DNA of 27,923 nucleotides from positions 1 to 27,923 of IMG/VR virus record IMGVR_UViG_3300005805_000364; one strand, 5' to 3'. The position numbers and the translations under genes were made by a program. Under the pieces are notes generated by a model. It was not told the DNA's origin and did no database searches. It saw nothing but the letters and a program-made list of their open reading frames with translations. This document shows positions 493 through 22,605 of this stretch, in pieces. This stretch comes from a virus (lineage: Duplodnaviria; Caudoviricetes). Position 1 is the stretch's first letter. Every line of letters begins with the position of its first letter.

Positions 493-2922
493 TTAAGGGT
501 GGGTTGCTTTGTATGCGTCGAACTCGGCTTTCAATTCCTGCAAAGCCTTCATCAGCGCATATTGCAGATCGGTCTGATAGATGCTCAGGCGCATCTTGGG
601 GTTATCTTCTGTGCCCCAGTTGCTTTCCATCACTAACTCAGGCGCGACTGCTTGAACGTCCTGCGCTACCACACCAAGAGTCAGGCCGGGGTCATCCTCA
701 GACTGGTCGATGTAGTTGAAGGTCTGCACAGGGATAGCGCAGATGGTGTCGAGGTAAGACTTAGCCGGGGCGAAGTTAATCTTCTCGCGGCGGTCAGACA
801 GGTTGACATCGTTGGCGCTGTAGTTTGCGATGCCGCCGTTTGAGCGAATGGTGGCGCGAACCGCAGCGTTGTCTTGGCAATAAAGGAATGTATTTCCTGT
901 TCCGTTTGGCGCTGCTGCCGTGTACTGGATCACTACACCGTTGGGGTTTGTCGCTGTTGCTTGCGTGAAATACCCGATCCAATCTCCTGAAGCATTAGAA
1001 TAAAGTTCATGGTACGAAGCAGTGCTTCCTGCGTAAGTCCCGCTATTACTGGCCTTAAAGTACCCCCCGCTGGTGATACGGGCGCGTTCGGTGCCACTTG
1101 TGCTGAACACAATTGGGTAAGCGCCAGAGTGATAAAAATTAAGGGCATAGGCTGTGCTAATGCCACCAGCACTATTATCAAGTCCAATATAAGCAGTACC
1201 ACCAGTGTTAACCAACTGAATAAGGCTGCTGTTTGTTCCTGTGGTGGCTGTTTGACGAATGCGCGGGCCAGCAGCAGAAATATCAAGCGTAAACCCAGGA
1301 GAAGTTGTTCCAATACCAAGCTGTCCACTCGCATCCAGCGTCATTGCTTGGGTGAAGGTGATGGCATTGCCTGCGGTGCCGGAGGGGGCGTTGTACCACT
1401 GATGCTGGTTGTTAATTAACGTGTACCGTTGTGCGGTATCCGTGGCTACATATCTGTAATTGGCACCATCGTAGTAGGCGTTATTAATTAGGTTTATTTG
1501 CCTGTTGCTCGCGCCGCCGTCATACGCAGCAATAGACCCAACCGGGAACTGCATCGCTTTCAGCGTTGACCACGCACTCGGCGTCACCCCAAGGCCGAGG
1601 TTGCCGGAGGAGTCGAGGCGCATACGCTCGCCCCATGCCGACCCGTTGTAAGTCCAAAATGCAATCGAGGCGGCGGCTCCTGCACTATCTGTGCCGATAA
1701 CACCAATCTGACCAGAAGAGTCGTACCCAAGGAAAATACCTCGTTTGGTAGTTGTATCCTGCCGCGTAATAATCGTGGAATACATAGTCCCAGAGGTCAC
1801 CGTGCCAGCGCCAACCACATCCAGCTTTGTTCCCGGCGAACTCGTCCCAATCCCGAGGTTGCCGGAGGATTCAAGTTGCATTAACGTACTGCCAGCAACT
1901 TGCCATTCATGTCGTGTCGTCGCAGCGTTATATGCAAGAACGCCATTGCTGTACAACAATACAGAACCAGCACCATAGTTCTGAACTTGGAAACGCCCTG
2001 CTGAGGTCTGCACATCCAGCTTATAAGAAGGCGAACTCGTCCCTATACCCAGACCTGTGGAGGTCAGGCGCATTTGTTCGGAGTTGTTTACGCCAAAGGC
2101 CGTGTAGCTGTTAAAGCGATTCCATAGATAGGCTTCACCAGCATTGCCCTGCCCGACAAGTAATGAGCCTGTACCGGGAGTGCGTCCACCTCCTGCAATT
2201 TCCTGATAAGCATCACCTGTGCCCCGAAAGTAGACAATGCCACCTGATACGCCGGACACATCAAGTTTTGCAGCGGGTGCAATACCAACACCTAAACTTG
2301 TCCCATCAAACGTCAGCGCACTCCCCGTAGTCAGGACTTTGCTGCCGTTGAGGTAAGCCACGCCGTTAGCTGTGCCGCCGTTGATGGTTACGGTAGAAGT
2401 TGTGGTCAGCGCATTGGCCGTCAGCGTGGTGCCATCAAACAGCAGATTTGCGCTGTCCGTCAGATTACCGCCCGTGGTGGCGTAGGTCACGCGCCCAGAG
2501 GTCAGGCTGGAATCTGTAAAGTTTGCTGTTACAAGAGTGGTGCCATCAAAGGTCAGATTCGCAGACTGGCCGATGGCGCTTGTGGACGACGAATAAAATA
2601 CTCGGTTTGCAGTGAAACTGGTCAAGCCAGTACCGCCGTTAGTAGTGGCAAGCGTTCCTGCAACAGTGATTGCTCCGCTGGTCGCAGTTGAAGGAGTCAG
2701 TCCGGTCGTGCCAAAGCTCAGCGTTGTGACCGGCGCAACAGTTGCACTCGATGCCAACAAAGTGACTACGCCAGAACTGTTTTTGAAATACAGCTTTCCA
2801 TCGGCATAATTCAATGCCAATTCAGCACCAGACGCACTGCTCGTCAGATTCGCAGCCAGTGGCACATTGGATGCAGTTCCGGAAGCGTAGACGAGGATGG
2901 GCGTGTACCCGCTTTGAGCCAT
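493..2922 (-). CDS. Tail fibre protein with C-terminal intramolecular chaperone (peptidase S74 type), 809 aa
   Basis: N-terminal ELALNYADGKLYFK anchor-like motif. Repeated R(L/I)xxxGxLGIGTxxP modules. C-terminal SDRREKINF...LGVVAQDVQAVAPELV...MKALQELKAE, typical of an S74 autocleaving chaperone with a terminal coiled coil. SD GAAAGGA upstream. Confidence 0.9.
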   Translation of the reverse strand: MAQSGYTPILVYASGTASNVPLAANLTSSASGAELALNYADGKLYFKNSSGVVTLLASSATVAPVTTLSFGTTGLTPSTATSGAITVAGTLATTNGGTGLTSFTANRVFYSSSTSAIGQSANLTFDGTTLVTANFTDSSLTSGRVTYATTGGNLTDSANLLFDGTTLTANALTTTSTVTINGGTANGVAYLNGSKVLTTGSALTFDGTSLGVGIAPAAKLDVSGVSGGIVYFRGTGDAYQEIAGGGRTPGTGSLLVGQGNAGEAYLWNRFNSYTAFGVNNSEQMRLTSTGLGIGTSSPSYKLDVQTSAGRFQVQNYGAGSVLLYSNGVLAYNAATTRHEWQVAGSTLMQLESSGNLGIGTSSPGTKLDVVGAGTVTSGTMYSTIITRQDTTTKRGIFLGYDSSGQIGVIGTDSAGAAASIAFWTYNGSAWGERMRLDSSGNLGLGVTPSAWSTLKAMQFPVGSIAAYDGGASNRQINLINNAYYDGANYRYVATDTAQRYTLINNQHQWYNAPSGTAGNAITFTQAMTLDASGQLGIGTTSPGFTLDISAAGPRIRQTATTGTNSSLIQLVNTGGTAYIGLDNSAGGISTAYALNFYHSGAYPIVFSTSGTERARITSGGYFKASNSGTYAGSTASYHELYSNASGDWIGYFTQATATNPNGVVIQYTAAAPNGTGNTFLYCQDNAAVRATIRSNGGIANYSANDVNLSDRREKINFAPAKSYLDTICAIPVQTFNYIDQSEDDPGLTLGVVAQDVQAVAPELVMESNWGTEDNPKMRLSIYQTDLQYALMKALQELKAEFDAYKATHP

Positions 2923-2951: not shown

Positions 2952-3431
2952 TTACCCAAGATTAGAAACGATCTCAGCCCTTTTTTCAACCGAGCGCAGG
3001 CCCTCCAAAGCCTGTAAAACGGTCTCTGGCTGAACGAACTTGCTGGGATCGTGCTCTACGAACTCCCACCACAAAAACTGGTTCTCAGACAGGCATTCCC
3101 TGCTCTTGAGAAGATTCACATTCTCAGGGTGCCCATAGATCAGTGGGTCAGATACTGACCACAGGACAATGCCCCTTTTCCCCTCGTCCCAGCCCAGATG
3201 CTGGAAAAAACTGTCACAAGCAATCCATGTGTCGCACTGCCTGAGCAACTCACGCAATTGCTGGACTGACAAGTCCTTCCTGAAATCGGGCACAAGCTGC
3301 TTCTCACCCGTGATCCCAACCTGAATGATCTCATCGTCGATCATAGGGATCAACTGCTCCCAGAACGGGTAATTCTTGGGATTCTGCCGGCCATTCATCA
3401 GCGCCTTGGAGTATGGAGCAATCAAGATCAT
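2952..3431 (-). CDS. GT9 (heptosyltransferase-like, GT-B fold) C-terminal nucleotide-sugar-binding lobe, 159 aa
   Basis: Motifs ILIAPYS...KNYPFWEQL...IIQVG...DLSVQQLRELLRQCDTWIACDSFFQHL...GIVLWS...YG match the RfaF/GT9 C-terminal domain pattern. Start reassigned to the ATG at 3431 (ATGA overlap with the upstream stop). Confidence 0.8.
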   Translation of the reverse strand: MILIAPYSKALMNGRQNPKNYPFWEQLIPMIDDEIIQVGITGEKQLVPDFRKDLSVQQLRELLRQCDTWIACDSFFQHLGWDEGKRGIVLWSVSDPLIYGHPENVNLLKSRECLSENQFLWWEFVEHDPSKFVQPETVLQALEGLRSVEKRAEIVSNLG

Positions 3432-4396
3432 GCGTATAGCCTCCTGAACGCTCCCTCCAGATTGCCCTTCCACTTCCACTGATCCATCTTGCCATATACG
3501 TTGAACGCATCAATGCTTCCAAACAGCGCCTGCGCTTCAGCAATCGACCGACAAGGCACTATCTCTGGATAGCACCCAAAGATCACCGGGTTCTTGATTT
3601 CCGGCAGCACATGAGTGAACACAATGTGATCTCCCATGCCACAGTTGAGAACCACAATCGTGTTGTCCCGATGGGCCATGAAGTTCTGGAAAATCGCCTC
3701 GTCCTGCTCATACAGCTTTTGGTTTGTCTCGCTGCGGATGCCGCCTTCCGGATTCTTCAGGTGCCATGTCACAGCATCAGGCACCACTAGAACCTTGTAT
3801 CCCTTCTTAAACAGCCCATAAGTGAACAACGTCTCTTCACGGTGCGCCACCCTAGATAGCCCGGTGTTGTAGTCGTACACGCCGGCACGGTACAAAAACG
3901 TGCAGTGCAAATGCTCGACTTCCTGCTTGTGCTTGATGTAAGACCACTGGATGTTCGGCTCGGCATTGATCATGTCAACCCGGCCAGTGGAAACAATCGG
4001 GTTCGGGTCAAACGGCTTGGTCAGCACAGACCCGCCAATTGCTCCCACATCATCTGCGATGTGCTTGCACAGATTCTCAAGCACATTGGGCTCGGGTATC
4101 GCGTCATCATCTACCCGCCAAACCCAATCGAAACCCATTCGGTTTGCGATCTGGTGATTGTGATGCTGGCCCTTCTTGCCGGCAAAGAGCCACTCCCATT
4201 GGATGCCTTTTTCCTGCAAGATTTGAAAGAAGTGCGAATAGATCAACTCTGTTCGCACATCCTTTGGCTCGTCGTTGTCGTCGAAAATGACGAGCTTATC
4301 GACGCGCCTAGTCTGACAGATCACCGCCTGCAAGGTCAACGGCAGTGTGCTGTGATATCGACCTCTTGTGGATATTGAGCAAAGAATCTTACCCAT
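3428..4396 (-). CDS. Glycosyltransferase: GT2 (GT-A) domain plus a short GT9-like N-lobe at the C-terminus, 322 aa
   Basis: ISTRGRY...LVIFDDND...WVWRVDDD (DxD)...HREET for GT-A. The C-terminal IVVLNCGMGDHIVFTHVL resembles the GT9 N-terminal G(I/L)GD motif. Confidence 0.8.
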   Translation of the reverse strand: MGKILCSISTRGRYHSTLPLTLQAVICQTRRVDKLVIFDDNDEPKDVRTELIYSHFFQILQEKGIQWEWLFAGKKGQHHNHQIANRMGFDWVWRVDDDAIPEPNVLENLCKHIADDVGAIGGSVLTKPFDPNPIVSTGRVDMINAEPNIQWSYIKHKQEVEHLHCTFLYRAGVYDYNTGLSRVAHREETLFTYGLFKKGYKVLVVPDAVTWHLKNPEGGIRSETNQKLYEQDEAIFQNFMAHRDNTIVVLNCGMGDHIVFTHVLPEIKNPVIFGCYPEIVPCRSIAEAQALFGSIDAFNVYGKMDQWKWKGNLEGAFRRLYA

Positions 4397-5681
4397 TTGT
4401 CCACCTACAAATCATCAGATTCAAGTGATTTGTATCGTTGATCGGGTGAGCCACAGCGGAGATTTCGCCGGCCTCGTTGATGTAGTTGAACTCAAAGCCG
4501 GGGAAGTGACTCTCATTGAGGCCATGCAGCTTGTGATGCGGCCCCCAAAACCCGACAGGCTCGTTCATCGGCACTGTGATCATCAGGCGCTTGCAATGCT
4601 TCTTCAGGCGCTCTACGACCTCAAGGCCATTGTCTATGTGCTCAATCACCTCAAACGCAACGATGGAGTCGTACTGCTCAAGCGGGAACTGGTTTATGTC
4701 TGCATTAAAGAACTTGGTGTGATCACCCCAGCCCTGCTCCTTTGCGACTTCAACAATGATCGGGTCGTAGTCCACGCCCGTGTAGTCAATGTCTTGCGGG
4801 AAGAACTGTGTGCCGTAACCGTTAGAGCAGCCAATCTCAAGGATTTTCTTGCCGACCAAGTTGTCATTGGCCCACTTGTACCGCGTCACCTCGCGTGGGA
4901 ATACATGATCACCCTTGAGGAAAACAGCCCGCTCCCAGTAATTGGACAGACGCCAGCGATACCACTCAAAATTGTATTTCTTGGCGAGCTTGAGACTGTT
5001 CCTCAAAAAGATGTTGTCCCAACCCTGAACCAAGTTGGGGTCGTGCATCGTGCCCTCACCCTTGTGGTAGATCGGAAACCAGCCCGTGTACTGAGTGCCA
5101 TCCCAAGTCTTGGTCAGCACTTCCTGCACCTCAAAGCCGGCCTTCTCTGCCTCGATACAGAACTCGGTGTCCTCTCCACCGCCAACGCCGTATTCCTCGT
5201 TTAGAAGACCGATCTTGTCAAAGACTTTACGGTCAACCATCACACAAAAGAAGACAGCGAAATCGCGCCCTGCCGGCTCAGACGGCCCCTTGATCACGCA
5301 TGAGATGCCGCACTTGGGATTGTCCTGAAATGGCTTCTCAAACAACTCCAGCCAGCAAGTCTTAGGCTGCTCCAAGAGCACCGTGTCGTTGTTCAACAAG
5401 ACGATGCGCTGGCCTGTGGCGGCTTTGATGCCCTCATTGGTGGCCTTAGCATAGCCAAGCGGCTTGTCATCCCAAACCACCTTGAAATGGCTGGAAAAAC
5501 CAATTGCGTCGAACTGGTTTTTTAAAGACTGCAAGTACCAGTATGTGTTGTCCGTGCATCCATTGGCAGAGATGACCAACTCAACGTCGGTCAAATCTGT
5601 CCACTTGAAGATGGAGTCAATGCATGGTTTCAGGTACTTGTCACAGTTGTTGTACGTCGGGATGACGATACTGTATTTCAT
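4389..5681 (-). CDS. GT2 glycosyltransferase fused to a class I SAM-dependent methyltransferase, 430 aa
   Basis: YSIVIPTYN...GYAKATNEGI...VLLNNDT...GGEDTEFC (GT2), then RYKWA...ILEIGCSNGYG...YTGVD...FEVIEHI...ITVP (methyltransferase motifs). The start overlaps the stop of the Gly-Ser repeat gene (TAATG). Confidence 0.9.
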   Translation of the reverse strand: MKYSIVIPTYNNCDKYLKPCIDSIFKWTDLTDVELVISANGCTDNTYWYLQSLKNQFDAIGFSSHFKVVWDDKPLGYAKATNEGIKAATGQRIVLLNNDTVLLEQPKTCWLELFEKPFQDNPKCGISCVIKGPSEPAGRDFAVFFCVMVDRKVFDKIGLLNEEYGVGGGEDTEFCIEAEKAGFEVQEVLTKTWDGTQYTGWFPIYHKGEGTMHDPNLVQGWDNIFLRNSLKLAKKYNFEWYRWRLSNYWERAVFLKGDHVFPREVTRYKWANDNLVGKKILEIGCSNGYGTQFFPQDIDYTGVDYDPIIVEVAKEQGWGDHTKFFNADINQFPLEQYDSIVAFEVIEHIDNGLEVVERLKKHCKRLMITVPMNEPVGFWGPHHKLHGLNESHFPGFEFNYINEAGEISAVAHPINDTNHLNLMICRWTNG

Positions 5682-8584
5682 TAGAACGCGCCTCCTGAAA
5701 CGCCACCTGTTATGGCGTTTGTCGTCCCATTGTAGGTCAGGCCGCTATTGACAAACACAGATTGTGCGCCTGTTGTGCCTGTGACAAACGTCAGATAGGT
5801 GGTCGTTGCAGTGCTGGTGGACACCGTGACTGTTGTCGGAGGTGCGCCTGAGAAACCGCTTACACCCGAAAAACCAGAAATGCCAGAGAATCCGGATATC
5901 CCAGAAAAGCCCGAAATTCCTGAAAAGCCACTGATGCCCGAAAAACCTGAGATGCCAGACGCACCAGAAAAGCCTGATATTCCAGAACCGCTAAATCCTG
6001 AAATACCAGAAAAGCCGCTGATACCAGAAAAACCAGATATGCCGCTAAATCCAGATATGCCGGATGCGCCAGAGAATCCGGAAATACCTGAGCCGCTAAA
6101 CCCGCTTATCCCAGAAAAACCACTAATTCCAGAAAAACCACTAATTCCAGAAAAACCTGAAATACCGCTAAATCCAGAAATTCCCGATGCGCCTGAGAAA
6201 CCAGAAATTCCAGAACCAGAAAATCCAGAAATTCCTGAGAAACCACTTATCCCAGAGAAGCCCGAAATACCGCTGGCCCCACTAAACCCAGAAATGCCAG
6301 ATCCGCTAAATCCTGAAGTGCCGCTAAATCCGGATATTCCACTAAATCCGGAAATGCCAGAAAAGCCAGAAATTCCACTAAAACCGGATTGACCTGAAAA
6401 ACCGGAAATGCCTGAGCCACTAAAGCCAGAAATACCGCTAAAGCCAGAAATTCCGCTAAAACCTGAAATCCCAGAAAAGCCGCTGAATCCACTGATTCCA
6501 GAACCGCTAAAGCCCGAGATGCCAGAGCCGCTAAAGCCAGAAATTCCGCTAAAACCAGAGATCCCTGAGAACCCAGAAATGCCGGAGAACCCACTAAACC
6601 CAGAGATGCCCGACCCGCTAAATCCGGAGATGCCTGATCCACTAAATCCCGAAATGCCACTGAAGCCAGAAATCCCAGAAAAGCCAGAGAAGCCGCTGAT
6701 ACCGCTACCAGAGAAACCAGAAAAACCGCTGATTCCGCTGCCGGAGAATCCAGATCTGCCAGAAAAGCCACTAAAACCAGATATCCCGCTAAACCCGGAA
6801 ATACCCGAAAAACCGCTAATGCCGGAACCGGAAAATCCAGAGGTGCCAGAAAAGCCGGAGATGCCTGAGAACCCGCTTATTCCTGAGAATCCCGAAATAC
6901 CACTGGCTCCGCTAAAGCCTGATATGCCAGAGCCGCTGAATCCGGAAATACCAGATCCGCTAAAGCCAGATATGCCAGAAAAGCCAGATGTGCCGCTAAA
7001 ACCAGAGATTCCAGAAAATCCACTAATTCCGCTGCCAGAAAATCCAGAAATTCCAGAAAAGCCAGAAATGCCAGAAAAGCCTGAAATTCCTGAAAAACCA
7101 GAGATGCCAGAAAAACCTGACGTTCCACTAGCGCCTGAAAATCCTGAAATTCCGGAAAAACCAGATGTCCCAGAAAAACCGGATATCCCGCTTTGCCCTG
7201 AAAAACCTGATGTTCCTGAAAATCCTGAAATTCCTGATGCGCCAGAAAAACCGGAAATGCCAGAAGTTCCAGAAAAACCGGAAATACCAGAAAAACCACT
7301 GGCACCAGAAAAACCACTAATTCCAGATCCGCTAAAACCACTTATTCCTGAAAATCCAGAAATTCCGCTAAAGCCGGACTGACCAGAAAAACCAGAAATG
7401 CCCGACCATCCGGAAATTCCGCTAAAACCCGAAAATCCAGATATGCCCGAAAAACCAGAAAAACCAGAGAAGCCAGAAACTCCAGACCCTGAATAGCCAC
7501 TTATCCCAGAAAAACCACTTATTCCAGAAAAACCGCTGATTCCAGAAAATCCGCTAATTCCCGAGAAGCCACTGACGCCAGAAAATCCGCTGGCGCCTGA
7601 GTAGCCAGAAACACCTGATCCAGAATAACCAGAAAGTCCGCTAAAACCAGAAATTCCGCTAAAACCAGATGTGCCACTAAACCCAGAAACTCCTGCTCCA
7701 CTAAATCCACTGAAGCCAGAAATGCCAGACCCGCTGTACCCTGAAATCCCGCTAAAGCCAGAAAGACCCGAATTTCCAGAAAAACCAGAAAAACCAGAAA
7801 TTCCTGAAAAACCAGACAAACCAAGGCCAGAAAAACCTGACGCTCCAGAATATCCACTTACACCAGAATATCCAGAAGTGCCGAGAGCATTAGACCAACC
7901 AGCACTGGTGTAGGCTTCAATCTCATTTAAATCTGTGTTATATCGTATTGCACCAAAAGAAGTGGTATTGCGTTCGGCTGATGTTCCGCTTGGCAGCACC
8001 AAAGAACCTGTACCAGGAATTACCGGGTTGGATGCAATAGAAACAGTAATGTTTCCAGAACCATCTCCATTTGCAATACTAATCTGATTAGTAGTGCCAA
8101 GAACATTGATCTTGCCTACGGTGCCAGATTGGATGGCCAGAACACCTGTTCCAGTCAAGCTGACTAGGTTTGACAAAAACGCGCCAAGACTGATGGTGGG
8201 GTTCCCAGAGACGCCATCTGCGTCAGTGACACCTAGTCCTGCACCAACCGCCAAAGAACGTGCTATGAGCGTATTAGGCCCTGTCTTGACCTGTATTCCT
8301 GTGCCGCTTGAGTCCAGGGACTGTGCAGCACCAGTCAGATTGATCTGCAGCGTACTGCCGACCCCGTTATCGGTCAAAGACAGACCTAATCCTGTTGCCA
8401 GATATCGTGCTAGGGGCAGTCCGGCAGTAGATCCGACCGTCAAGAACGGATAGTTCAGCGCACCAGCACCAGCGATTGCGCCCGTGGTCGTTTGAACCGT
8501 GACCCCGTTTTGGACGATGGGTACGGATTCGGTTCCGGTCAGTGCCTGAGCCTGTGGAAGTTGGGTGATTGAGACTTGTGCCAT
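5681..8584 (-). CDS. Virion appendage/fibre protein with a very long Gly-X-Ser repeat, 967 aa
   Basis: Start moved to the ATG at 8584, 1 nt after the upstream stop. N-terminal anchor-like VSITQLP...VPIVQNG, a fibre-type motif LPSGTSAER...GAIRYNTD...EAY...W, about 680 aa of SG(F/I/Y) repeats, and a short beta-rich C-terminus ending SGGAF. Confidence 0.8.
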   Translation of the reverse strand: MAQVSITQLPQAQALTGTESVPIVQNGVTVQTTTGAIAGAGALNYPFLTVGSTAGLPLARYLATGLGLSLTDNGVGSTLQINLTGAAQSLDSSGTGIQVKTGPNTLIARSLAVGAGLGVTDADGVSGNPTISLGAFLSNLVSLTGTGVLAIQSGTVGKINVLGTTNQISIANGDGSGNITVSIASNPVIPGTGSLVLPSGTSAERNTTSFGAIRYNTDLNEIEAYTSAGWSNALGTSGYSGVSGYSGASGFSGLGLSGFSGISGFSGFSGNSGLSGFSGISGYSGSGISGFSGFSGAGVSGFSGTSGFSGISGFSGLSGYSGSGVSGYSGASGFSGVSGFSGISGFSGISGFSGISGFSGISGYSGSGVSGFSGFSGFSGISGFSGFSGISGWSGISGFSGQSGFSGISGFSGISGFSGSGISGFSGASGFSGISGFSGTSGISGFSGASGISGFSGTSGFSGQSGISGFSGTSGFSGISGFSGASGTSGFSGISGFSGISGFSGISGFSGISGFSGSGISGFSGISGFSGTSGFSGISGFSGSGISGFSGSGISGFSGASGISGFSGISGFSGISGFSGTSGFSGSGISGFSGISGFSGISGFSGFSGRSGFSGSGISGFSGFSGSGISGFSGFSGISGFSGISGFSGSGISGFSGSGISGFSGFSGISGFSGISGFSGISGFSGSGISGFSGSGISGFSGFSGISGFSGISGFSGISGFSGSGISGFSGQSGFSGISGFSGISGFSGISGFSGTSGFSGSGISGFSGASGISGFSGISGFSGISGFSGSGISGFSGASGISGFSGISGFSGISGFSGISGFSGISGFSGSGISGFSGASGISGFSGISGFSGISGFSGISGFSGSGISGFSGASGISGFSGISGFSGISGFSGISGFSGISGFSGVSGFSGAPPTTVTVSTSTATTTYLTFVTGTTGAQSVFVNSGLTYNGTTNAITGGVSGGAF
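5846..7882 (-). repeat. Coding 9-bp-period tandem repeat encoding (Gly-X-Ser)n, X mostly Phe/Ile, with periodic Gly-Ser dyad interruptions
   Basis: Directly visible as repeated ccagaaaaa/ccgctaaa/ccagaaat units on the + strand. Translation gives GISGFSGISGFSGSGISGFS... with heavy synonymous variation. Confidence 0.97.
8077..8093. promoter_or_regulatory. Palindrome TACTAATCTGATTAGTA (intragenic copy of the recurring site)
   Basis: 17/17 identical to the copy at 26188-26204. Lies inside the 967-aa gene, encoding TNQIS. Confidence 0.55.
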
Positions 8585-8930: not shown

Positions 8931-10001
8931 TTACCTCGTATAGACAGAAATATTCGGCGCGTAGTAGATGGGCGACTTGTCTCGATTTTCTGCCTCGGCC
9001 ATCTGGAAATACTTCTCAGCTTGACCCTCAAGATACGTGATGCGAGCCAGATCCACCCCAGGCAAGATCATGCTCATCTGGTGAGCCAGCAAAAATTGGA
9101 TGGCCTGGAAGAAATACTGGGGGATTTCAAGTTCACCATACAGATCGCCCACATCCATGATCTGACGCGAATACCAGATGGTCATCTGATAAAACGGGTC
9201 TGACGGCGTCGGCCACAAAGTAATCGTGGCCTGCGGAATCGTGCGGTTGAGCCAATACTGATACGGCTGGTTGGCCGTGAAGTTCTTGTTAGGCAGGTTT
9301 GTGTAGTCGTCCCGATTCAACCGAGCCATGGTGACCTCGGTCGAATTGTTGCCAACGTAGAACTCGGCCACATCCAATGTGCCGCCGCCGGTCTCGCGCA
9401 TGCGGTAGTACTGCGCGGTCACACCAGGCTCAATGTCGTACCACAGCCACTCACCACTGACCCAAATCTCAGTGCCGGTGTCTTTCAGCAAATTCCAATT
9501 AGTGCCATCACTTGACCACTCCAAAAGGATGTGGAACGGGCCAGAAGTCGCCGGCAAAATGCCGATTGAGCCAGCATAGACCTCGTTGTACTGGCCGTAA
9601 TTGATGCCAATATGGCCGTTTGGTGCATTCTGAGCATCAGAAGTCAGAATGTTGTTGTCAAAGGCCAAGCCAGTAACGCCAGATGACGCAAAATAACCGC
9701 CGCCGGCATTGGGCGTAGGACGATTCATGCGCCGATACAAAGCATTGAGCACATCATTGCCGCCCACAGGCAGCAAGTACTCATACTGATCCATCCGAAG
9801 GCCATAGACCTTCTTGGAAACGCACCAATAGTTGATGCCCTGATTGATCAGATTGCTCAGAGTAAAGAACAGGGCCTGCTTTGCCGCTTGGACTTGCTCA
9901 ACAGTCAATTCCTCGGCCAACTTGCCCGACAGACGAGCACCTTGGTCAATGAATTTCTGTACAGAAACGACTGTTTGTCCAACGGTTCCGCTATAAGCCA
10001 T
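8931..10001 (-). CDS. Putative head-tail adaptor/neck protein with an inserted beta-sandwich (discoidin-like) domain, 356 aa
   Basis: Helical N-terminus (AKQALFFTLSNLINQGINYW), LNRDDYTNLPNK...P.QYW...LWPTP, and a helical C-terminus, as in podovirus adaptors. The insert has AFDNN...LEWSSDGTNW...AQYYRM. SD GAGGT upstream. Confidence 0.65.
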   Translation of the reverse strand: MAYSGTVGQTVVSVQKFIDQGARLSGKLAEELTVEQVQAAKQALFFTLSNLINQGINYWCVSKKVYGLRMDQYEYLLPVGGNDVLNALYRRMNRPTPNAGGGYFASSGVTGLAFDNNILTSDAQNAPNGHIGINYGQYNEVYAGSIGILPATSGPFHILLEWSSDGTNWNLLKDTGTEIWVSGEWLWYDIEPGVTAQYYRMRETGGGTLDVAEFYVGNNSTEVTMARLNRDDYTNLPNKNFTANQPYQYWLNRTIPQATITLWPTPSDPFYQMTIWYSRQIMDVGDLYGELEIPQYFFQAIQFLLAHQMSMILPGVDLARITYLEGQAEKYFQMAEAENRDKSPIYYAPNISVYTR

Positions 10002-10009
10002 GTGCTACC

Positions 10010-10264
10010 TCACCATCCTGGGCATTTCCAGCGCTTCAGGGACGCCTTAGCGCGTTCTGCATCGCCTTTTGAGTGTGCTACTACTCCTGACATTCTCGCG
10101 CAAAACGAGTCTTTGCGGGCCCCTCCTTGGGGCTGTGGAGCCTTCAGATTAGAACCAGTCTCGCGGTTGTACTTTGCCCTGCCCTTGGCCGTCAAACCGG
10201 CACCTTGGGAAGCAGGCAACTTCTCTCCGCGGCCAACAGCAAGTGAAACACCTTTTTTTGCCAT
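10010..10264 (-). CDS. Small basic conserved phage protein (KDSFCARMSG type), 84 aa
   Basis: GAGLTAKGRAKYNRETGSNLKAP...RKDSFCARMSG...SLKRWKC is a motif set I recognise from aquatic phage structural modules. Function unknown. Confidence 0.75.
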   Translation of the reverse strand: MAKKGVSLAVGRGEKLPASQGAGLTAKGRAKYNRETGSNLKAPQPQGGARKDSFCARMSGVVAHSKGDAERAKASLKRWKCPGW

Positions 10265-10266
10265 GA

Positions 10267-10845
10267 TTACCAGCAGGATTTTTTGACCTTGCCGCCAGTT
10301 GCCTTTGGCAATTTGGGAGCAGGATGTTTGCCAAGATTTGCCTTGATTGATCTCTTTATGTACTCAGGTCTTAAAGCGCGTTCTTTAAAAGCCGTTCTTT
10401 GAACGTAATCATCGCTGTAATTTTGAGAAGAAGGATCATTTTCAACAGGAATGTTTTGCAAGTTTGTTTGACCCTTGCGAGGAACTTTAAATGGCTGGTT
10501 TATGCCAATTCTTACGGCCAATGGATCTCTTCCAGGCACTCGAAACGGGAAAGCCTCAGGAACTCCACCGTCACTTATTTTGGCGGTCTTGGCAGACTGC
10601 TTAAATGCATCCGCAGTCGGAGCGCCAGGCGCACCTGGCTTACGCATCTTCTCGCCAGAACCTTTGGCAATGCGCTCGCGTTTGGCGTGAATGTTGGCAT
10701 ACAGACCACCACCATCCGCTTTTTTGGCGCGACGCTGAACATCGTAGGCAATTGCCACTGCCTGTTTCTGTGGCTTGCCAGCAGCAATCTCAGCCTTAAT
10801 GTTGGACTTGAATGCTTTTTCTGATTTGGATTTAGTCAAAGGCAT
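10267..10845 (-). CDS. Basic modular protein: three segments delimited by G-G motifs, 192 aa
   Basis: Segment 1 MPLTKSKSEKAFKSNIKAEIAAGKPQKQAVAIAY; KADGG; segment 2 GLYANIHAKRERI...AKTAK; ISDGG; segment 3; terminal KATGGKV. Confidence 0.75.
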   Translation of the reverse strand: MPLTKSKSEKAFKSNIKAEIAAGKPQKQAVAIAYDVQRRAKKADGGGLYANIHAKRERIAKGSGEKMRKPGAPGAPTADAFKQSAKTAKISDGGVPEAFPFRVPGRDPLAVRIGINQPFKVPRKGQTNLQNIPVENDPSSQNYSDDYVQRTAFKERALRPEYIKRSIKANLGKHPAPKLPKATGGKVKKSCW

Positions 10846-11433
10846 TTAGGCCACCTGTTGCATAGACACGACCACAGACTGGGTCGATGGAATTGCAGGG
10901 GTTGTTTGTGCAGCATAGAACGGCACAGTCACATTTGTTGAGGTTGGCAACCAAACAATTTCAACATACTGACCTGCAGTCAATGTTAGAAAGTAATTCC
11001 AGCCAATGATTGAATGAAAAGGATCAGAAGGATTTTTCCGCGCAGGCATACCAACTTTGCCAGCAGAACCATTTACGTCTGTACCATTGACCCGCAGCCA
11101 AATATAAATATCTTGAGGGGCAACATCTGTGCTTTGCACTTGCACACTAAATTGCAAGTTGTATGTACCAGCAACAGGAACCGTCAACCGGCTGTTGCTT
11201 GCCACGGTCACGCCGCCAGCATAGTCGGTTGTGTTGAATGTAAATGCTGTGCCTACACTAGTTGAGCCAGTTTGCGTTGCTCCGCTTGAGAACGCGCCAG
11301 CATTACCTCTAGTAAATGCCGTCAAGTTTGATAGCGTTGACTTGACATTTGCGCCAGACTGAACCAGAGGCACAAGTTCTGCACCAGTCAGCGTTGCTGC
11401 TGACGGCATTGCTGAGATTTTGGTATCTGCCAT
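10846..11433 (-). CDS. Short virion appendage protein with a C1q/TNF-like beta-sandwich C-terminal domain, 195 aa
   Basis: N-terminal ADTKISAMP...LVPLVQSG anchor. The C-terminus has SRLTVPVAGTYNLQFSVQ...IWLRVNG...LTAGQYVEIVW, a C1q/BclA-CTD-like pattern. Confidence 0.75.
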   Translation of the reverse strand: MADTKISAMPSAATLTGAELVPLVQSGANVKSTLSNLTAFTRGNAGAFSSGATQTGSTSVGTAFTFNTTDYAGGVTVASNSRLTVPVAGTYNLQFSVQVQSTDVAPQDIYIWLRVNGTDVNGSAGKVGMPARKNPSDPFHSIIGWNYFLTLTAGQYVEIVWLPTSTNVTVPFYAAQTTPAIPSTQSVVVSMQQVA

Positions 11434-11666
11434 TAGTTGCTCTCCAATTCAATCTTGCTGCCGTCTTCTTGCAAGACGTAACCAGTCGATTCCATCAAAA
11501 TGTAGTATTTGACCCGTGCTGCACCACCGTAGAGGTCAACAACACCGTTGTCGCCCACATCATCGCCCGGTGTTGCACCTACTACGTTTGCGGCACTGGT
11601 ATCCGCAGCAAATCCGTCTGTGGTATTTGCTTGGTTGGCAACGCCTGTGTAGCCAACATAAGGCAT
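11433..11666 (-). CDS. Small acidic structural-module protein, 77 aa
   Basis: Fills the gap between neighbours exactly, with a TAATG overlap into the next gene. C-terminal YILMESTGYVLQEDGSKIELE motif. Confidence 0.7.
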   Translation of the reverse strand: MPYVGYTGVANQANTTDGFAADTSAANVVGATPGDDVGDNGVVDLYGGAARVKYYILMESTGYVLQEDGSKIELESN

Positions 11667-11667
11667 G

Positions 11668-11970
11668 TCAGATGCCCGCTTGAATCAGGTTTAGAGTTGC
11701 ACTGCCATCACCTGAATTGACCAAAACTTTGATCCCAGTCACAGGAAATGCGTAGTTGCCGTCCTGATTGTCAGTCTTGCTGGCAATCGTAGGATGGCTG
11801 TACCAAGTCGTAAATCCCACCGCGGGATCATCAAAAGTGTGCTGCACGGTGTAGTTCACAGTGCCAGACACCACAACACCAAATCCCACATTGAAAGGGC
11901 TGATGTTCGTATTCATCACCAGGGCAGGGCTTGAGCCTGTGCCGGTCTTGGAAACAGTCTGAACTTTCAT
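11668..11970 (-). CDS. Beta-rich structural protein, 100 aa
   Basis: SD GAGGA upstream. All-beta pattern (VSGTVNYTVQHTFDD...PVTGIKVLVNSG). Confidence 0.75.
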   Translation of the reverse strand: MKVQTVSKTGTGSSPALVMNTNISPFNVGFGVVVSGTVNYTVQHTFDDPAVGFTTWYSHPTIASKTDNQDGNYAFPVTGIKVLVNSGDGSATLNLIQAGI

Positions 11971-11981
11971 GTCAATTCCTC

Positions 11982-12009
11982 AAAAAAAGCAGGGGCCGAA
12001 GCCCCCGCT
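11982..12009 (-). terminator. Rho-independent terminator
   Basis: The minus strand reads AGCGGGGGC-TTCG-GCCCCTGC-TTTTTTT right after the stop at 12012: a GC stem, a UUCG loop and seven U. Confidence 0.85.
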
Positions 12010-12011
12010 CT

Positions 12012-13379
12012 TCAGCACTTCATTGAGCCGCCACGCTTTCTAGACGGCGTCACCGTGACCGATTCCTTGGTCTTGGTAACAGCGCCTGGCGCTTTGTCAG
12101 CACCAGTCATGCCGCTAAAAAGAGACCTTGCGCCTTGGTAAAGCCGGCGAGGAACGCTACGAATGGCCTTAGCCATGTCCATCTCGCTCTCGCTGGGGCC
12201 AATGCTCTTGTCATAAGCACCTTTGCTCGCGTCTTCCAAGCCGCCTTCAGCATGGCGCTTGACCTTGCCTCCGCGCTTGAAAGTACCAGATTGCAAGCTG
12301 TTAGCCACGGGCGGGCTGATGAAATGGTGAGGCATCTTTACTGCCTTACCATCATCAACAACGTTGCCCCCCGTGGCGTAGTGCTTTTTTGAGGCATGGC
12401 CTCCATGCTTGTAGCCACCAGCGTTGGCCTCTTTGACCTCACCAGTCTTGGTGTTGGTCTTGCCAGCCTTAGCAGTATTGGCAGGCCGGTTTTCCCAATT
12501 ACCACCTTCGACAGTGGTACGGGTCAACTTGCTGTCAATCGCGCCGCCAGAGGCGTATTTCATGGCCTTGCCACCATGTTTGAAGCCGCCAGCATTAGCC
12601 ATCTTAACGCCACCAGTGGTGCCATTAGTCTTGCCCTTGCCGGCAGTGTTCATCTTGGTGTTTTCGTATGCGCCCTCATTGCCCATAATGGAGCCACCCA
12701 TGGCATAGCCTCCCGGCTTGCCTTCCTTGACCTCACCAGTGCCGTGAGCAGTGTCCTTCTTTGCCGTATCAACTTTGGTCTTGGCATAAGGCTTGACACT
12801 GTTCTTCAGCGTGGTCTTGGTCTCGGCTGCATCAATCTCGCCACCAGAGGCTTTGCCGTGCGCTTTTGCCGCAGACATTGACTCATGATGCTTGAGTTCT
12901 TTCTCAAGTTTGGCGCAATCAGCAGCAGTGGAACCACCCTTCTTCATGCCCATGAGAGCACGACGAACAGCAGCAGCACGACTTGCTCGAGCAGCAGGGG
13001 CCATTGCAGCCAAAGCAGGACGACCCATCGGTGACATAGCAGGACGAGCCATGGCAGCGCCAGAGCCCATCGGAGCAGCACCACCAAGAGCACCAGCGCC
13101 CATACCGCCAGGCATTGCCCCGCCCATCTGCTTGTGAGCGACTTTGCCGCCCTTGGCATACATGTTGGGGTTCATCGCCTTACGGCGAGCAGCCATCGGA
13201 GGCTTCTTGGGCGCTTTACCGCTTTCAGCAGCATCAAAAGGATTGCCACCAGAAGTCTGACTCATGGATTTGAATCCATCGTCATGACCCTTGGCCTTGA
13301 CTTTTCCACCTTTTTTGAGCTTCAGGATCACTGAGGGCTCATCGGTGTACATCTTCACCATTGGTTTGAATTGGCCCAT
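12012..13379 (-). CDS. Lys/Gly/Ala/Met-rich low-complexity protein with 13 x-[AK]-x-G-G-type motifs; putative internal virion protein, 455 aa
   Basis: Start moved to the ATG at 13379 (SD GAGGAGG). Lies between the capsid-linked genes and the terminator. Motifs LKKGG, YAKGG, MKKGG, YAMGG, FKHGG, YASGG, YATGG, FKRGG and others. Confidence 0.75.
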   Translation of the reverse strand: MGQFKPMVKMYTDEPSVILKLKKGGKVKAKGHDDGFKSMSQTSGGNPFDAAESGKAPKKPPMAARRKAMNPNMYAKGGKVAHKQMGGAMPGGMGAGALGGAAPMGSGAAMARPAMSPMGRPALAAMAPAARASRAAAVRRALMGMKKGGSTAADCAKLEKELKHHESMSAAKAHGKASGGEIDAAETKTTLKNSVKPYAKTKVDTAKKDTAHGTGEVKEGKPGGYAMGGSIMGNEGAYENTKMNTAGKGKTNGTTGGVKMANAGGFKHGGKAMKYASGGAIDSKLTRTTVEGGNWENRPANTAKAGKTNTKTGEVKEANAGGYKHGGHASKKHYATGGNVVDDGKAVKMPHHFISPPVANSLQSGTFKRGGKVKRHAEGGLEDASKGAYDKSIGPSESEMDMAKAIRSVPRRLYQGARSLFSGMTGADKAPGAVTKTKESVTVTPSRKRGGSMKC

Positions 13380-13390
13380 GATATGCCTCC

Positions 13391-13840
13391 TCAAACTTTC
13401 TGAGCGTAAACCACAGTCAGGCGATAAATCCCCTGAGTGGTGGAGATCGTGCCGTTGGGGTCAACGGTGATCACAACGCTTTGATTGGTGCTGACATCAG
13501 CCATTGCAGCCAATTGAGCAGCCGTGAATGTCAAAGCAATCCGCCCGCCACCAATGACATCTGTTGAAGACACATATTGTGTGCCTGCAGCAGCAGTGCC
13601 AATGGTCATTGCAATTGCAGTCGCTGTGCCGCCGCCTACAACTTCATCTTGCACAGTATCAACAAAGAAATTGATGATCTGAGAAGAAGCCGGAATGGTG
13701 ATAGTGCTGGACACAGCAGTACCAGCGGCAACAGTGGTTACCGTGGTAGTTTGTGCCAAAACCATGAAACCACCATCAGTGGTATCGGTCAACGTGCCAG
13801 AGCCTGCCCGAACGGTACTTCCAAAGTACGTTTGTGCCAT
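13391..13840 (-). CDS. Capsid-associated beta-rich structural protein, 149 aa
   Basis: Start moved to the ATG at 13840 (SD AAGGAG). Immediately follows the major capsid gene. Pattern IPASSQII...IGTAAAGTQY...G.YRLTVVY. Confidence 0.75.
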   Translation of the reverse strand: MAQTYFGSTVRAGSGTLTDTTDGGFMVLAQTTTVTTVAAGTAVSSTITIPASSQIINFFVDTVQDEVVGGGTATAIAMTIGTAAAGTQYVSSTDVIGGGRIALTFTAAQLAAMADVSTNQSVVITVDPNGTISTTQGIYRLTVVYAQKV

Positions 13841-16982: not shown

Positions 16983-17441
16983 TCAGACGTAGGCTTTGAA
17001 CGAAAGGGGATTGCCGGTGACCTTGGCAATCAATTCGTGGTCATTTAGGGTCATGAAAAGCACTGGATCTTCCAGGTCGTCCTCGCCGGGAACGCGAATT
17101 TCCCAACGATCACCGCCCCATTTGGGCACCCGAACATAATCTCCGACCTGCGCCCATGTGCCCTCAGGCCATGGCTGCATCGTGTCGCGGTTTTTGAAGG
17201 CCAAAGGGCCCATCGCAACCACCTGACCGATCATGTTGTTCCACTTTTCGTTCTCTTTGGTCTCTTCCACCAAGATAATCCTGCCCGCGGTCTTCTTTTT
17301 GATGCGGCGCAATTGGATTACTACGCGCCCTCCAAAAGGCTGCATGCCAGGCTTTACCTTGGGAAATGCCCACTCCAGTTCTTGAGGATCTGGAATATCG
17401 TCAGTCGTCTCAAAAGAAACGATCTTTTTTACTTCACTCAC
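16983..17441 (-). CDS. groES: GroES/Cpn10-like co-chaperonin, 152 aa
   Basis: QPFGGRVVI...KTAGRIIL...GQVVAMGP...VGDYV...LNDHELIAKV match Cpn10 motifs. GTG start at 17441 with SD AAGGAG 6 nt upstream. Confidence 0.85.
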   Translation of the reverse strand: MSEVKKIVSFETTDDIPDPQELEWAFPKVKPGMQPFGGRVVIQLRRIKKKTAGRIILVEETKENEKWNNMIGQVVAMGPLAFKNRDTMQPWPEGTWAQVGDYVRVPKWGGDRWEIRVPGEDDLEDPVLFMTLNDHELIAKVTGNPLSFKAYV

Positions 17442-17518
17442 TCTCTTCTCCTTCACGCCAATATCTCAGGCGCATCATTAAGTGCTTTGCAGCACGGTCT
17501 CACCCCGGAGTGGGGCTA

Positions 17519-17851: not shown

Positions 17852-20308
17852 TCATACTCCTGGTGGTGGGGTTTCGGCTTGCGCCGGGGGAACAGCCCCA
17901 CCAATATCTGGGGGCTGCACTTGAGCTTGAGCCACATTCTGAATGGTCTCATGCGTCAATTTTGAATTCTCAATTGCAATCTTGGTTTGGTTATCCATGG
18001 CATGCTCCTGCATATCCTTTTGCAGTTTAGCCTGTGCCAGTTGAATATCAGCCTGATCCTTCTGGGTCTTGCGCTGAGTTTCAGCCATGCTGGTGTCCTT
18101 AACCACCTGTGCATCAGGCGGCAAGGGCTGCGGCTGGTTCTTGCGCTGCTGGGCCATCTGGATAAGCTGCTGGAAGGCCGGCGCAAATTGGCCAAACACC
18201 TCCTGCGTATCCATCATCACATGAGCACCCACGGTCGTGTAGACCTTGTCAATCGTTGGCGTAAGGGCCGGATTGTCATAGTCATCCACCGGCTTGCCAG
18301 TAGATTGCTCAACATACCCGTTGCTGCGATTGAGATACCACAGCGTCATGTGCTGCTTCAAATGCTCAATCAGATTATTCAGATAATTGGGATCAGCAAA
18401 TGGCGATTGGCCCAGGAAAGGGTTCATCGCAAACTGCAAATGATCCTGAATGTGAGCAATATGGTCTTGCTGCAAATACGCATATGCCGGCTGACCAATT
18501 AACAGTGCTGCATTTTCATCTGCCGATGTACGCTGTTCAGGTGCCGGTACATCCTTCATCAGTTCATTGATGTTGGGCACCTTCATCTGCTTGAGAACTC
18601 GAGCGAGCACCGTACTGATATTGAACTGATCCGGGTGTTTGTCAGCCAACGCCAGCACAGCCTGGGACTGGGCCATGCGCTGAGTTTCGCTGAAGATGTG
18701 CGGGTCAGACACCGGCACCACATCAGTGTTTCGTGCAAAGTCCTCGCGGCTGATCTCCAGATCTGCCACCACATCGGATTTCTGCATGTCGTCAAAATGC
18801 CACCGATTGAGCCGGCATAAAATTTTGAGGACTCGAGCCTGAGAGTCGTGCAACCGAGCATGGATGGCCGAGAACACCGCAGCACCCTGCTCAATCAGCG
18901 CCTGAGTGGTGCCCACAGGGGCATTGGCATTGATGTCAGCGATCTTTTCTTCGCTGGTGCTCACTACCCCCTTGGCCGCGGTGTCAAGCCAGCCCAAGAG
19001 CCGGAAAAGCACCTCGCTAGGCGGGTTGAATGGCATTGGCATAGCAATCTGCCGAATGTCCTGCACACCAGGCGCACCCTCAATCTCCACAATTTGGGTC
19101 ACCTCAACCTGCTGGCTTTGGCCACTAATCTTGGCCCCCTTGAGCTTGAGCATGGTCGCAGCGTTGTTGATGTGCGCCGAGTCCAGCAAAGCCCTCAGAG
19201 AGCCCGTCAGAGCCGCGCTGAGACCGCCGATAAGGTGCGGCAGGCCAATCGCATATGCGCCACGCCAGGGAATAAATTTGAACTCCACAACCCAGTCAAG
19301 CTTGGTCATGGTTTCATCAGATTCTTCCCAGTTGCGGTACAGGCCCACCACTTCCTGATCCAACTCGTCAATCATCAGGATGTACGGTGCGCTCCTGCCC
19401 TTGGTCTTTCTGTCCTCTTCCAACTCAAGATACGTGTAGATGTGATACACCTTACGTAGCCCGTCTTTGTTTTCCTCAAACTGCTTGCCTTCAACTTTGT
19501 TGTTGGCCTTCTCCACCTTGTTCTGCTCGAGGCTGGGCGCGGCTTTGATGAAATTGACATCGCGGTACATGCCAGTGCGGATGCGGCGCTCAAACTCATG
19601 CGCCGTAATCTCATGCACCTCCGCAGCACGTTGGGCCGTGTAGAAGTTGGTCGCAGCAAAAGGCAAGATCACCCGGTCAATGGGCAAGAACTCCACGCAC
19701 GGGCGCTTCTTCTCCTCATCAAACCACAGCTTGAAGTACTGAGAACCACCAAGCGGCAATTGCGTCAACAACTGCTCTTGCTCATCGCGGAACTCCTCAA
19801 TCTGCTCGCTGATCTGCCAGTTCAGATAATCTTTCTTGCGCTCGGCGGTCTGAGCTTTCAACTCATCCATCTTGCCGATCACCTTGGTCTTCACCGGGCC
19901 ATCAGGCGGGAACAACTCTTTGATTGCCCGTGCCGCAAAGTCCACGCAGCCCTCTGCCATGGCCGGGTGAACGACCTTGCTGGCACCCATGAACGTAGCA
20001 CCGCCAGGCGCATCATTGCCCATGCCAGTGCGCCGGATGCCCTCCTCATACTGCTTGTCGCGCAGCGAGCGAGCCTCCTTGTCAGACTCAAGCAAATCCA
20101 AGTACCGGAATGAAATCGACGACAACGTTCCAGGATCAATTGAATCAGCCAGGTTGTCGTAAAAGTCCGGGTTGAACTCTGGCCCATCCTCAATATCAAC
20201 AATGGCCGATCCGTCAGGCAATTCCTCGCTAGGCAGATCTGGCAGATCAACAACAGCAGAACCGTCGTCCTGCTCTTGGATTTGAATGTCTTCTTGATCG
20301 TCCATCAT
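17852..20308 (-). CDS. Portal protein (P22-like podovirus type, long Gln-rich C-terminus), 818 aa
   Basis: SKVVHPAMAEGCVDF...ELFPPDGPVKT, LPLGGSQYFK, GLPHLIGGL...LRALLDSA, APVGTTQALIEQG..VFSAIHARLH, VPVSDP. Lies between the terminase and head genes. Confidence 0.9.
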   Translation of the reverse strand: MMDDQEDIQIQEQDDGSAVVDLPDLPSEELPDGSAIVDIEDGPEFNPDFYDNLADSIDPGTLSSISFRYLDLLESDKEARSLRDKQYEEGIRRTGMGNDAPGGATFMGASKVVHPAMAEGCVDFAARAIKELFPPDGPVKTKVIGKMDELKAQTAERKKDYLNWQISEQIEEFRDEQEQLLTQLPLGGSQYFKLWFDEEKKRPCVEFLPIDRVILPFAATNFYTAQRAAEVHEITAHEFERRIRTGMYRDVNFIKAAPSLEQNKVEKANNKVEGKQFEENKDGLRKVYHIYTYLELEEDRKTKGRSAPYILMIDELDQEVVGLYRNWEESDETMTKLDWVVEFKFIPWRGAYAIGLPHLIGGLSAALTGSLRALLDSAHINNAATMLKLKGAKISGQSQQVEVTQIVEIEGAPGVQDIRQIAMPMPFNPPSEVLFRLLGWLDTAAKGVVSTSEEKIADINANAPVGTTQALIEQGAAVFSAIHARLHDSQARVLKILCRLNRWHFDDMQKSDVVADLEISREDFARNTDVVPVSDPHIFSETQRMAQSQAVLALADKHPDQFNISTVLARVLKQMKVPNINELMKDVPAPEQRTSADENAALLIGQPAYAYLQQDHIAHIQDHLQFAMNPFLGQSPFADPNYLNNLIEHLKQHMTLWYLNRSNGYVEQSTGKPVDDYDNPALTPTIDKVYTTVGAHVMMDTQEVFGQFAPAFQQLIQMAQQRKNQPQPLPPDAQVVKDTSMAETQRKTQKDQADIQLAQAKLQKDMQEHAMDNQTKIAIENSKLTHETIQNVAQAQVQPPDIGGAVPPAQAETPPPGV

Positions 20309-22602: not shown

Positions 22603-22605
22603 ATT

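Follow-up and report, generated by a model that had tools for sequence, protein, structure and literature searches.

A Gly-X-Ser repeat fibre and its adjacent glycosyltransferase genes: a candidate self-glycosylation system in a tailed phage

A phage fibre gene followed directly by three genes for sugar-transferring enzymes raises the question of what these enzymes modify. The arrangement is found on a 27,923-nucleotide (nt) stretch of a freshwater Caudoviricetes phage genome (IMG/VR record IMGVR_UViG_3300005805_000364, positions 1 to 27,923; this whole stretch is referred to as the window). Here, a serine-rich Gly-X-Ser protein precedes a cassette of three genes: a glycosyltransferase (GT) family 2 domain fused to a methyltransferase (GT2a-methyltransferase), a second GT2 enzyme extended by a putative N-part of a GT9-like enzyme (GT2b-GT9N), and a putative C-lobe of such an enzyme (GT9C). 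A previous sequence-only reading had described this order of overlapping genes, which was confirmed: the repeat tract comprises 679 amino acids (aa), 34.0% of them Ser, and the overlaps measure 1 nt (fibre/GT2a), 8 nt (GT2a/GT2b) and 4 nt (GT2b/GT9C). The phage likely sugar-coats its own fibre, because its relatives nearly always have both repeat and cassette or neither. The cassette is proposed, with fair confidence, to O-glycosylate the serines of the adjacent fibre using host sugar donors, and the glycan likely coats the stalk and stabilises a collagen-like structure that is without proline or charge.

The repeat tract and its co-occurrence with the cassette

The fibre open reading frame (ORF; 8584-5681, minus strand) encodes 967 aa, counted from the ATG at 8584. 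Its tract consists mainly of Gly (34.5%), Ser, Phe (14.6%) and Ile (10.8%), chiefly as GFS (99) and GIS (73) triplets with 19 GS interruptions, and contains 231 Ser, 9 Thr, a single charged residue and no Pro. A tract without proline or charge is without the two usual stabilisers of prokaryotic collagen. Aromatic and non-aromatic residues alternate at the X position in 170 of 190 neighbouring pairs (mostly GFS/GIS). The interruptions leave 22 uninterrupted triplet runs, the longest of 32 triplets and many of fewer than 10, and 18 of the 22 reach six or more contiguous Gly-X-Y triplets, the criterion for collagen-like sequence given in PMC11923368. The 47 GFSGIS units have 44 different DNA spellings, with a mean of 5.2 of 18 nt differing, and this synonymous scrambling indicates that the repeat is maintained at the protein level. 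An assembly artefact or slippage was ruled out by the scrambled spellings and by coverage of the GT stretch with contigs from four runs in four studies, in which no indel is listed. PHROGs tail-fibre matches of the repeat protein were discounted, as they are driven by the low-complexity tract. The tract is likely a collagen-like stalk and the predicted glycan acceptor.

Linkage between tract and cassette was examined from several sides. Homologues of GT2a-methyltransferase were located at 197 loci; in the best 80 of these, GT2b is the next gene in 80/80 and GT9C is present in 76/80, the remaining four ending within 36 nt. The tract was found at 68 of these 80 loci, at 42 of the 43 with at least 3 kb upstream, and in 15 of 16 clusters at 95%. 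From the fibre N-terminal domain, 117 viral-contig relatives were obtained; in the best 80 (55-75% identity, many loci short), 79 are without the tract; L081 alone has it, and L081 is also the sole locus with the cassette. The 28 longest records of repeat-less relatives (10 at least 90% complete) contained no GT2b homologue and no PF00535 match. Furthermore, 49 of 80 loci with related capsids, picked by record length (12 at least 90% complete, and 4 also among the 28 repeat-less records), had neither cassette nor tract, and the positive control had both.

A tree of 50 distinct N-domains comprised 13 with both elements, 37 with neither and none mixed. The synteny check proposed by the sequence-only reading was thus borne out in small phages, where Gly-X-Ser homologues without GTs are not common. 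The tree omits N-domain matches that fall short of 170 aa, duplicates of a sequence, and GT-negative loci where less than 3 kb follows downstream; two of its rows share a genome. At least three changes are needed, forced by well-supported branches; because three changes are few, the tree counts as support, not proof. Similarly, among homologues of the N-terminus of the downstream fibre, a tract is present in 20 of the 37 distinct sequences at GT-positive loci and in 0 of 63 at GT-negative loci. On these sequence comparisons, the Gly-X-Ser repeat and the cassette are gained and lost together.

Starting from the repeat, a DNA pattern gave 166 loci, and 62 contigs were examined, those represented in the first 84 loci, which had long flanks. 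Cassette domains flank the tract in 41 of the 62 contigs, and in 31 of the 41 with at least 3 kb downstream; the cassette can be kilobases from the repeat. PF00535 was found in 39 of the first 50 Gly-X-Ser phage records, which are the less complete set, versus 1 of the 45 (of 50) lysine-aspartate collagen records searched, and cassette profiles detected no GT domain in 78 lysine-aspartate control loci. Glycosylation of a Y-position hydroxyl, shown for Thr, is described as a third route of collagen stabilisation, and (Gly-Pro-Thr)10 forms a triple helix solely when glycosylated (PMC11923368). Enzymes whose occurrence follows the Gly-X-Ser tract, and not that of charged collagen, most likely provide this modification.

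The cassette enzymes and a proposed route of glycosylation

The features of the fibre and cassette are collected in Table 1. Both GT2 ORFs pass the family cut-offs (PF00535/PF13641), the second (4396-3428, minus strand) matching PF13641 at E 8e-8. Across about 70 distinct homologues, the GT2a NND motif is conserved in 71/74, the methyltransferase motif in 68/69 and the GT2b DDD motif in 76/76. The structure model of GT2b (predicted local distance difference test, pLDDT, 89.6) has a GT-A fold and matches GT-A structures at Z 16-18. The nearest structures are polypeptide GalNAc-transferases (Z 18.0, root-mean-square deviation, rmsd, 3.8, 244 aligned), which are tied within 1 Z with ordinary GT2 enzymes, and the likeness is suggestive only. 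No membrane segment was found in the three cassette proteins (maximum 19-residue hydropathy 1.32), and a Pfam scan of the three ORFs returned no TPR family.

Table 1. Positions in the window of the repeat fibre, the cassette and the downstream tail fibre.
Feature	Position	Strand	Basis and remarks
Fibre N-terminal domain, ~234 aa, likely virion anchor	7883..8584	-	Common to repeat-less fibres of relatives
Gly-X-Ser tract, 679 aa, 231 Ser	5846..7882	-	Composition; Pfam Collagen PF01391 E 3e-73, a low-complexity match
Fibre C-terminal domain, 54 aa	5681..5845	-	Repeat-less fibres end likewise (blastp over loci, alignment)
GT2a fused to class I S-adenosylmethionine-dependent methyltransferase, 430 aa	4389..5681	-	PF00535 E 5e-17; PF08242 E 1e-10; variable part of the cassette
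GT2b, GT-A fold catalytic domain, DDD motif, minimal core	3671..4396	-	Pfam, motif, model
~80-aa C-terminal extension of the GT2b gene with GxGD, likely reduced GT9-type N-lobe	3428..3670	-	GxGD, natural fusions
GT9-like C-lobe, separate gene, 159 aa, minimal core	2952..3431	-	Start ATG at 3431; profile and fused homologue
Downstream tail fibre with S74 chaperone, no Gly-X-Ser repeat in the window	493..2922	-	PF13884 E 6.5e-12

The GT domain calls of the sequence-only reading held for the two GT2 domains and the methyltransferase by Pfam, while the GT9 halves could be recovered only through homologues. The window's own halves gave no match to Pfam GT9 (PF01075) at E<=0.01, and the assignment therefore rests on related proteins; four split C-lobes scored 16-22 bits against a cut-off of 22. 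Among 298 candidates, one longer homologue of the third gene was found (P0121, 54% identical), a GT2b-GT9N-GT9C fusion that passes this cut-off at E 1.8e-7 (31.2 bits vs 22). Natural fusions (P0121, P0126 and P0128) constitute three of the nine members of its cluster, come from three sources, and have the N-part directly preceding the C-lobe. The C-lobe profile matches WaaC residues 179-293 at E 1.5e-4. The GxGD of the ~80-aa N-part is invariant (71/71), and this segment is likely a reduced GT9-type N-lobe. A language-model search listed a viral GT9 cluster at 0.94, which is a lead only. The low-confidence model of the fused protein matches WaaF (1psw) at E 2e-4 with an rmsd of 19, and was dropped as too weak to prove lobe pairing.

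In the route that we envisage, the cassette would be expressed late, together with the virion genes, and its three genes would act in the cytoplasm as a phage-encoded O-glycosylation cassette. The two GT9-like halves would pair to form one GT-B enzyme. A minimal core of GT2b and the split GT9-like enzyme would place the first sugar on Ser and then extend it from host nucleotide sugars; whether the GT9-like enzyme with ADP-heptose or GT2b is the initiator is evenly balanced. GT2a would add an outer sugar, which the fused methyltransferase would methylate, and this part would vary between phages. The glycan would let the (GFS-GIS)n chains fold into a trimeric stalk of up to ~190 nm, with up to 231 sites per chain. 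This length is based on the collagen rise of 0.286 nm per residue. A triple helix as the actual product is given somewhat less than even chances.

Host sugar donors, suggested by the sequence-only reading, are supported by a family scan of two complete cassette-bearing relatives, which covered 71 of their 81 ORFs of at least 130 aa, the other 10 being homologues of cassette, capsid, portal and terminase genes. No sugar-nucleotide synthesis, DNA-hypermodification, Gtr or integrase family was found in these 71 ORFs. The methyl cap fared less evenly: the fused methyltransferase is present in the window but is not universal, as the smallest form of the system (L161, L167, L177, L205) comprises the tract, GT2b-GT9N and GT9C without GT2a-methyltransferase. 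Translational coupling proved not to be diagnostic: the window has 25 junctions between genes, of which 11 are overlapping or abutting, and gene overlap was therefore rejected as evidence of partnership.

Weighing the alternatives

Several findings weigh against fibre self-glycosylation or the enzyme assignments behind it. The sole exception on the enzyme side, the 14.8-kb fragment L020, has a cassette at 9971-12647 and no tract in the 10 kb upstream. From the repeat side, 10 of the 41 contigs with at least 3 kb downstream have no cassette nearby, and these are mostly large-phage fragments. Nine of the ten were searched whole: five have other GT2 genes elsewhere and four have none (14-21% complete). 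Among these four is L199, a fragment from a small phage: it has a tract, the 4.7 kb downstream of it contain no GT, and it is absent from the tree because its N-domain match is shorter than 170 aa. The lysine-aspartate control is unmatched for host or habitat, the linkage could reflect one co-inherited block, and the virion location of the fibre is deduced from gene position. As for the GT9-like enzyme, the N-part and GT2b-GT9N profiles had no meaningful match among solved structures, and the fused-protein model is weak (pLDDT 65.7, predicted template modelling score 0.39). The putative action of the GTs on the repeat serines is well supported by comparative genomics, through joint gain and loss in small phages, with L020, L199 and some large-phage fragments as exceptions.

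The closest competitor makes the same enzyme-substrate claim and differs in structure only. The serines would be glycosylated, but on a chain that forms an unfolded tether of the mucin or bottle-brush kind, or else a polyglycine-II or beta structure, with the glycan serving solubility, shielding or adhesion rather than the folding of a triple helix. We regard this as somewhat unlikely. It would account for the 19 Gly-Ser interruptions, which leave many runs under 10 triplets, and for a need to keep a bare chain with 25% Phe/Ile from aggregating, as it presumably would; the sulfotransferase and GT25 genes of the relative G051 (below) also point to surface chemistry. However, Gly strictly occupies every third position, with bulky residues limited to X and Ser to Y in tracts that were pre-selected for Ser at Y, and this follows the positional rules of collagen. 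Furthermore, phages with charge-stabilised collagen are without GT2 in all but one of 45 records. The term 'mucin-like', used in the sequence-only reading, fits poorly with strict Gly at every third residue, the Phe/Ile content and the lack of proline, and a collagen-like stalk would fit better.

The cassette may instead alter the host envelope (lipopolysaccharide, LPS, core or O-antigen) against superinfection, and travel with a fibre that recognises the same surface sugar. Phage GTs near fibre genes are usually read as modifying DNA or host LPS, and an envelope role is the usual proposal for such genes in aquatic phages (PMC10202952, PMC7029224). Among characterised proteins, those closest to the cassette's C-lobe are LPS heptosyltransferases, and a receptor-binding fibre could co-segregate with a receptor-modifying enzyme. 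Nevertheless, it is the stalk composition that co-varies with the cassette, whereas the fibre tip is common to cassette-less relatives, and several distinct fibre genes have the tract solely at loci that hold the cassette. Serotype conversion of the Gtr type involves genes for a membrane flippase and a membrane transferase. The cassette proteins have no membrane segment, Gtr-type families were absent from the window (Pfam scan) and from the 71 ORFs of the two complete relatives, and these ORFs include no integrase family. A scan of 185,579 prokaryote species genomes, which reaches only relatives retaining one of two motifs, gave four matches (L431-L434), all on metagenome-bin contigs from unrelated taxa. 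One is a 39-kb, phage-like contig with its own tract, and the four copies look like phage contigs binned with cells; as far as the sequences indicate, the cassette is phage-borne. An envelope role is judged unlikely.

Still less probable is that the sugars go to other proteins of the virion, in capsid or tail, and that the tract hitch-hikes in the same block. Phage GTs are reported to glycosylate capsid and tail tube in mycobacteriophages (Freeman et al. 2023, as cited in PMC12619734 and PMC10877033), and the L020 cassette lies away from a fibre gene. However, capsids at 90-97% identity are common to cassette-less phages, and cassette and tract occur together in unrelated virion types, including the cultured phage P19250A. 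Hypermodification of phage DNA against restriction, a known role of phage GTs (bioRxiv 10.1101/2023.12.21.572611), is highly improbable here, as the 71 ORFs of the two complete relatives include neither a cytosine methyltransferase nor a TET-type dioxygenase family and the cassette sits in a virion operon and co-varies with a protein repeat.

Carriers, genome setting and comparison with known systems

The system of repeat fibre and cassette is widespread and modular. GT2b homologues number 2,421 proteins at E<=0.001, the repeat pattern occurs in an estimated ~540 viral stretches, and sequencing runs with the cassette are mainly from lake, freshwater and drinking-water samples in several studies, with no RNA data set listed among them. 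GT2a and the methyltransferase are lost, fused or swapped for other families in relatives; next to a GT2, the place of the methyltransferase can be taken by FkbM-type, Methyltransf_24 or Methyltransf_11 domains, and L186 has an extra GT17 domain. In G051, a complete 56.6-kb relative, the cassette operon continues downstream (L436:3493-7954) with genes for a sulfotransferase, a GT25, an APS-kinase-like protein and a DxD sugar-binding GT, which suggests an extended glycan that may be sulfated. Among 50,697 GenBank phages, the only GT2b match (69%) is in P19250A (KX815270.1), a cultured phage of Methylophilaceae. Its gp23 bears a tape-measure annotation but is a Gly-X-Ser protein of 1,201 aa. The next genes, gp24-26, encode a free methyltransferase, GT2b-GT9N and GT9C, all annotated as hypothetical (gp23-26, L430:9753-15403). 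Unlike the window, the P19250A record includes a tape measure and a host-specificity J gene.

Some further observations concern other carriers. Large-phage fragments (L166, L176, L178, L206, L212, L235, L239) encode giant Gly-X-Ser proteins of up to 3,077 aa, often several consecutively, with the three-gene cassette not nearby and in some cases a GT2 elsewhere. Another such fragment (L170:10112-11948) has a sulfotransferase gene and a GT2-like match below cut-off near a Gly-X-Ser protein. The L020 cassette adjoins helicase and DUF932 genes, and large ORFs of two relatives contain polyvalent-protein ADP-ribosyltransferase domains.

In the window, the minus-strand virion operon comprises terminase, portal, capsid, a gene with a weak adaptor match, the repeat fibre, the three GT genes and the S74-chaperone tail fibre; repeat fibre and cassette genes all lie on the minus strand. 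The sequence-only reading had placed them between neck and tail-fibre genes, and the tail fibre was confirmed, whereas the presumed neck gene has only a weak SU10-adaptor match (E 8e-4, below cut-off). In its capsid protein the phage shares 96% identity with a 57-kb spring-water phage and 77% with Caulobacter phage RW, and complete relatives are mostly 50-58 kb. Promoter and terminator scans of the sequence gave chance-level results only. A GroES-like gene (16983-17456, minus strand; Pfam Cpn10 E 1e-6) lies between the portal and capsid genes, and G051 has one too. A 195-aa protein (10846-11433, minus strand) weakly matches the BclA C-terminal domain (E 7e-5, below cut-off), and homologous segments occur inside the Gly-X-Ser ORFs of some relatives. 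Large unannotated ORFs lie between terminase and portal (20305-24210, minus strand), and a Lys/Gly/Ala-rich ORF follows the capsid gene (12012-13394, minus strand).

A broader proposal, offered tentatively and with more doubt than belief, is that several unrelated freshwater virion types share a portable system in which proline-free, charge-free collagen (Gly-aromatic-Ser, Gly-Ile-Ser) folds only once its serines are O-glycosylated by phage enzymes. Sugar-aromatic stacking would replace hydroxyproline and salt bridges, the acceptor tract would reach additional fibre genes once a phage had the enzymes, and exchangeable outer GTs, methyltransferases and sulfotransferases would diversify the coat like a phage 'serotype'. 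If fibre self-glycosylation is true, it would extend phage self-glycosylation from mycobacteriophage capsids to the fibres of aquatic phages, and would offer both a test case from nature for collagen stabilised by glycans and a compact set of soluble enzymes for serine O-glycosylation. With P19250A in culture, the question of fibre glycosylation can be tested directly. Literature searches, which did not extend to subscription papers such as Freeman 2023 and the original account of P19250A, found no published description of the Gly-X-Ser/cassette pairing.

In Clostridioides difficile, Thr residues of the collagen repeat encoded by the adjacent gene bclA3 receive O-GlcNAc from SgtA (PMC7157674). 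As with SgtA-BclA3 and the BclA of Bacillus spores, a GT-A gene here adjoins the gene of a collagen-like surface fibre, and hydroxyl O-glycosylation of the repeat is predicted. However, SgtA-BclA3 involves Thr in Pro-containing GPT-type repeats on spores, whereas the phage has Ser in a Pro-free aromatic repeat, and its cassette goes beyond SgtA in having a split GT9-like enzyme and a fused methyltransferase. Among mycobacteriophages, phage GTs likewise modify the phage's own virion, as is predicted here (Freeman et al. 2023 via PMC12619734, PMC10877033); those glycans are on the C-termini of capsid and tail-tube subunits, in contrast to the hundreds of fibre-stalk serines predicted here, and the one cultured example of the present system infects a Gram-negative freshwater host. 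In chlorovirus PBCV-1, A064R unites GT domains and, in the same protein, a sugar O-methyltransferase by which a virion glycan is capped (PMC9614988); as this is a eukaryotic virus with capsid N-glycans, the parallel is architectural only and homology is not claimed.

The GT9-like enzyme has its own counterparts. Its likeness to WaaC/WaaF (GT9) lies in the C-lobe alignment and in the fused homologue that passes Pfam GT9, but its N-part is only ~80 aa and its scores are far below the NCBIfam heptosyltransferase equivalog cut-offs (about 20 bits against 170-437). TibC, a GT-B enzyme that resembles WaaC and whose N-lobe is reduced, transfers heptose to serines (PMC4358343). The phage enzyme would share with TibC/AAH a WaaC-like GT-B architecture, the reduced N-lobe and action on many serines of a repetitive surface protein. 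Only TibC begins with a beta-barrel at its N-terminus, bears a four-cysteine iron finger and acts on a beta-helix substrate; the four conserved cysteines were not found in the C-lobe alignment, and the C-lobe profile search had no TibC match at E<=10. The phage enzyme, unlike TibC, is split over two genes and fused to a GT2, its N-part following the GT2 domain. It may act in the manner of the bacterial autotransporter heptosyltransferases (BAHT), the group of TibC and AAH, without belonging to them. By analogy, then, the cassette would work like SgtA-BclA3 and TibC-TibA, while departing from the defining features of both.

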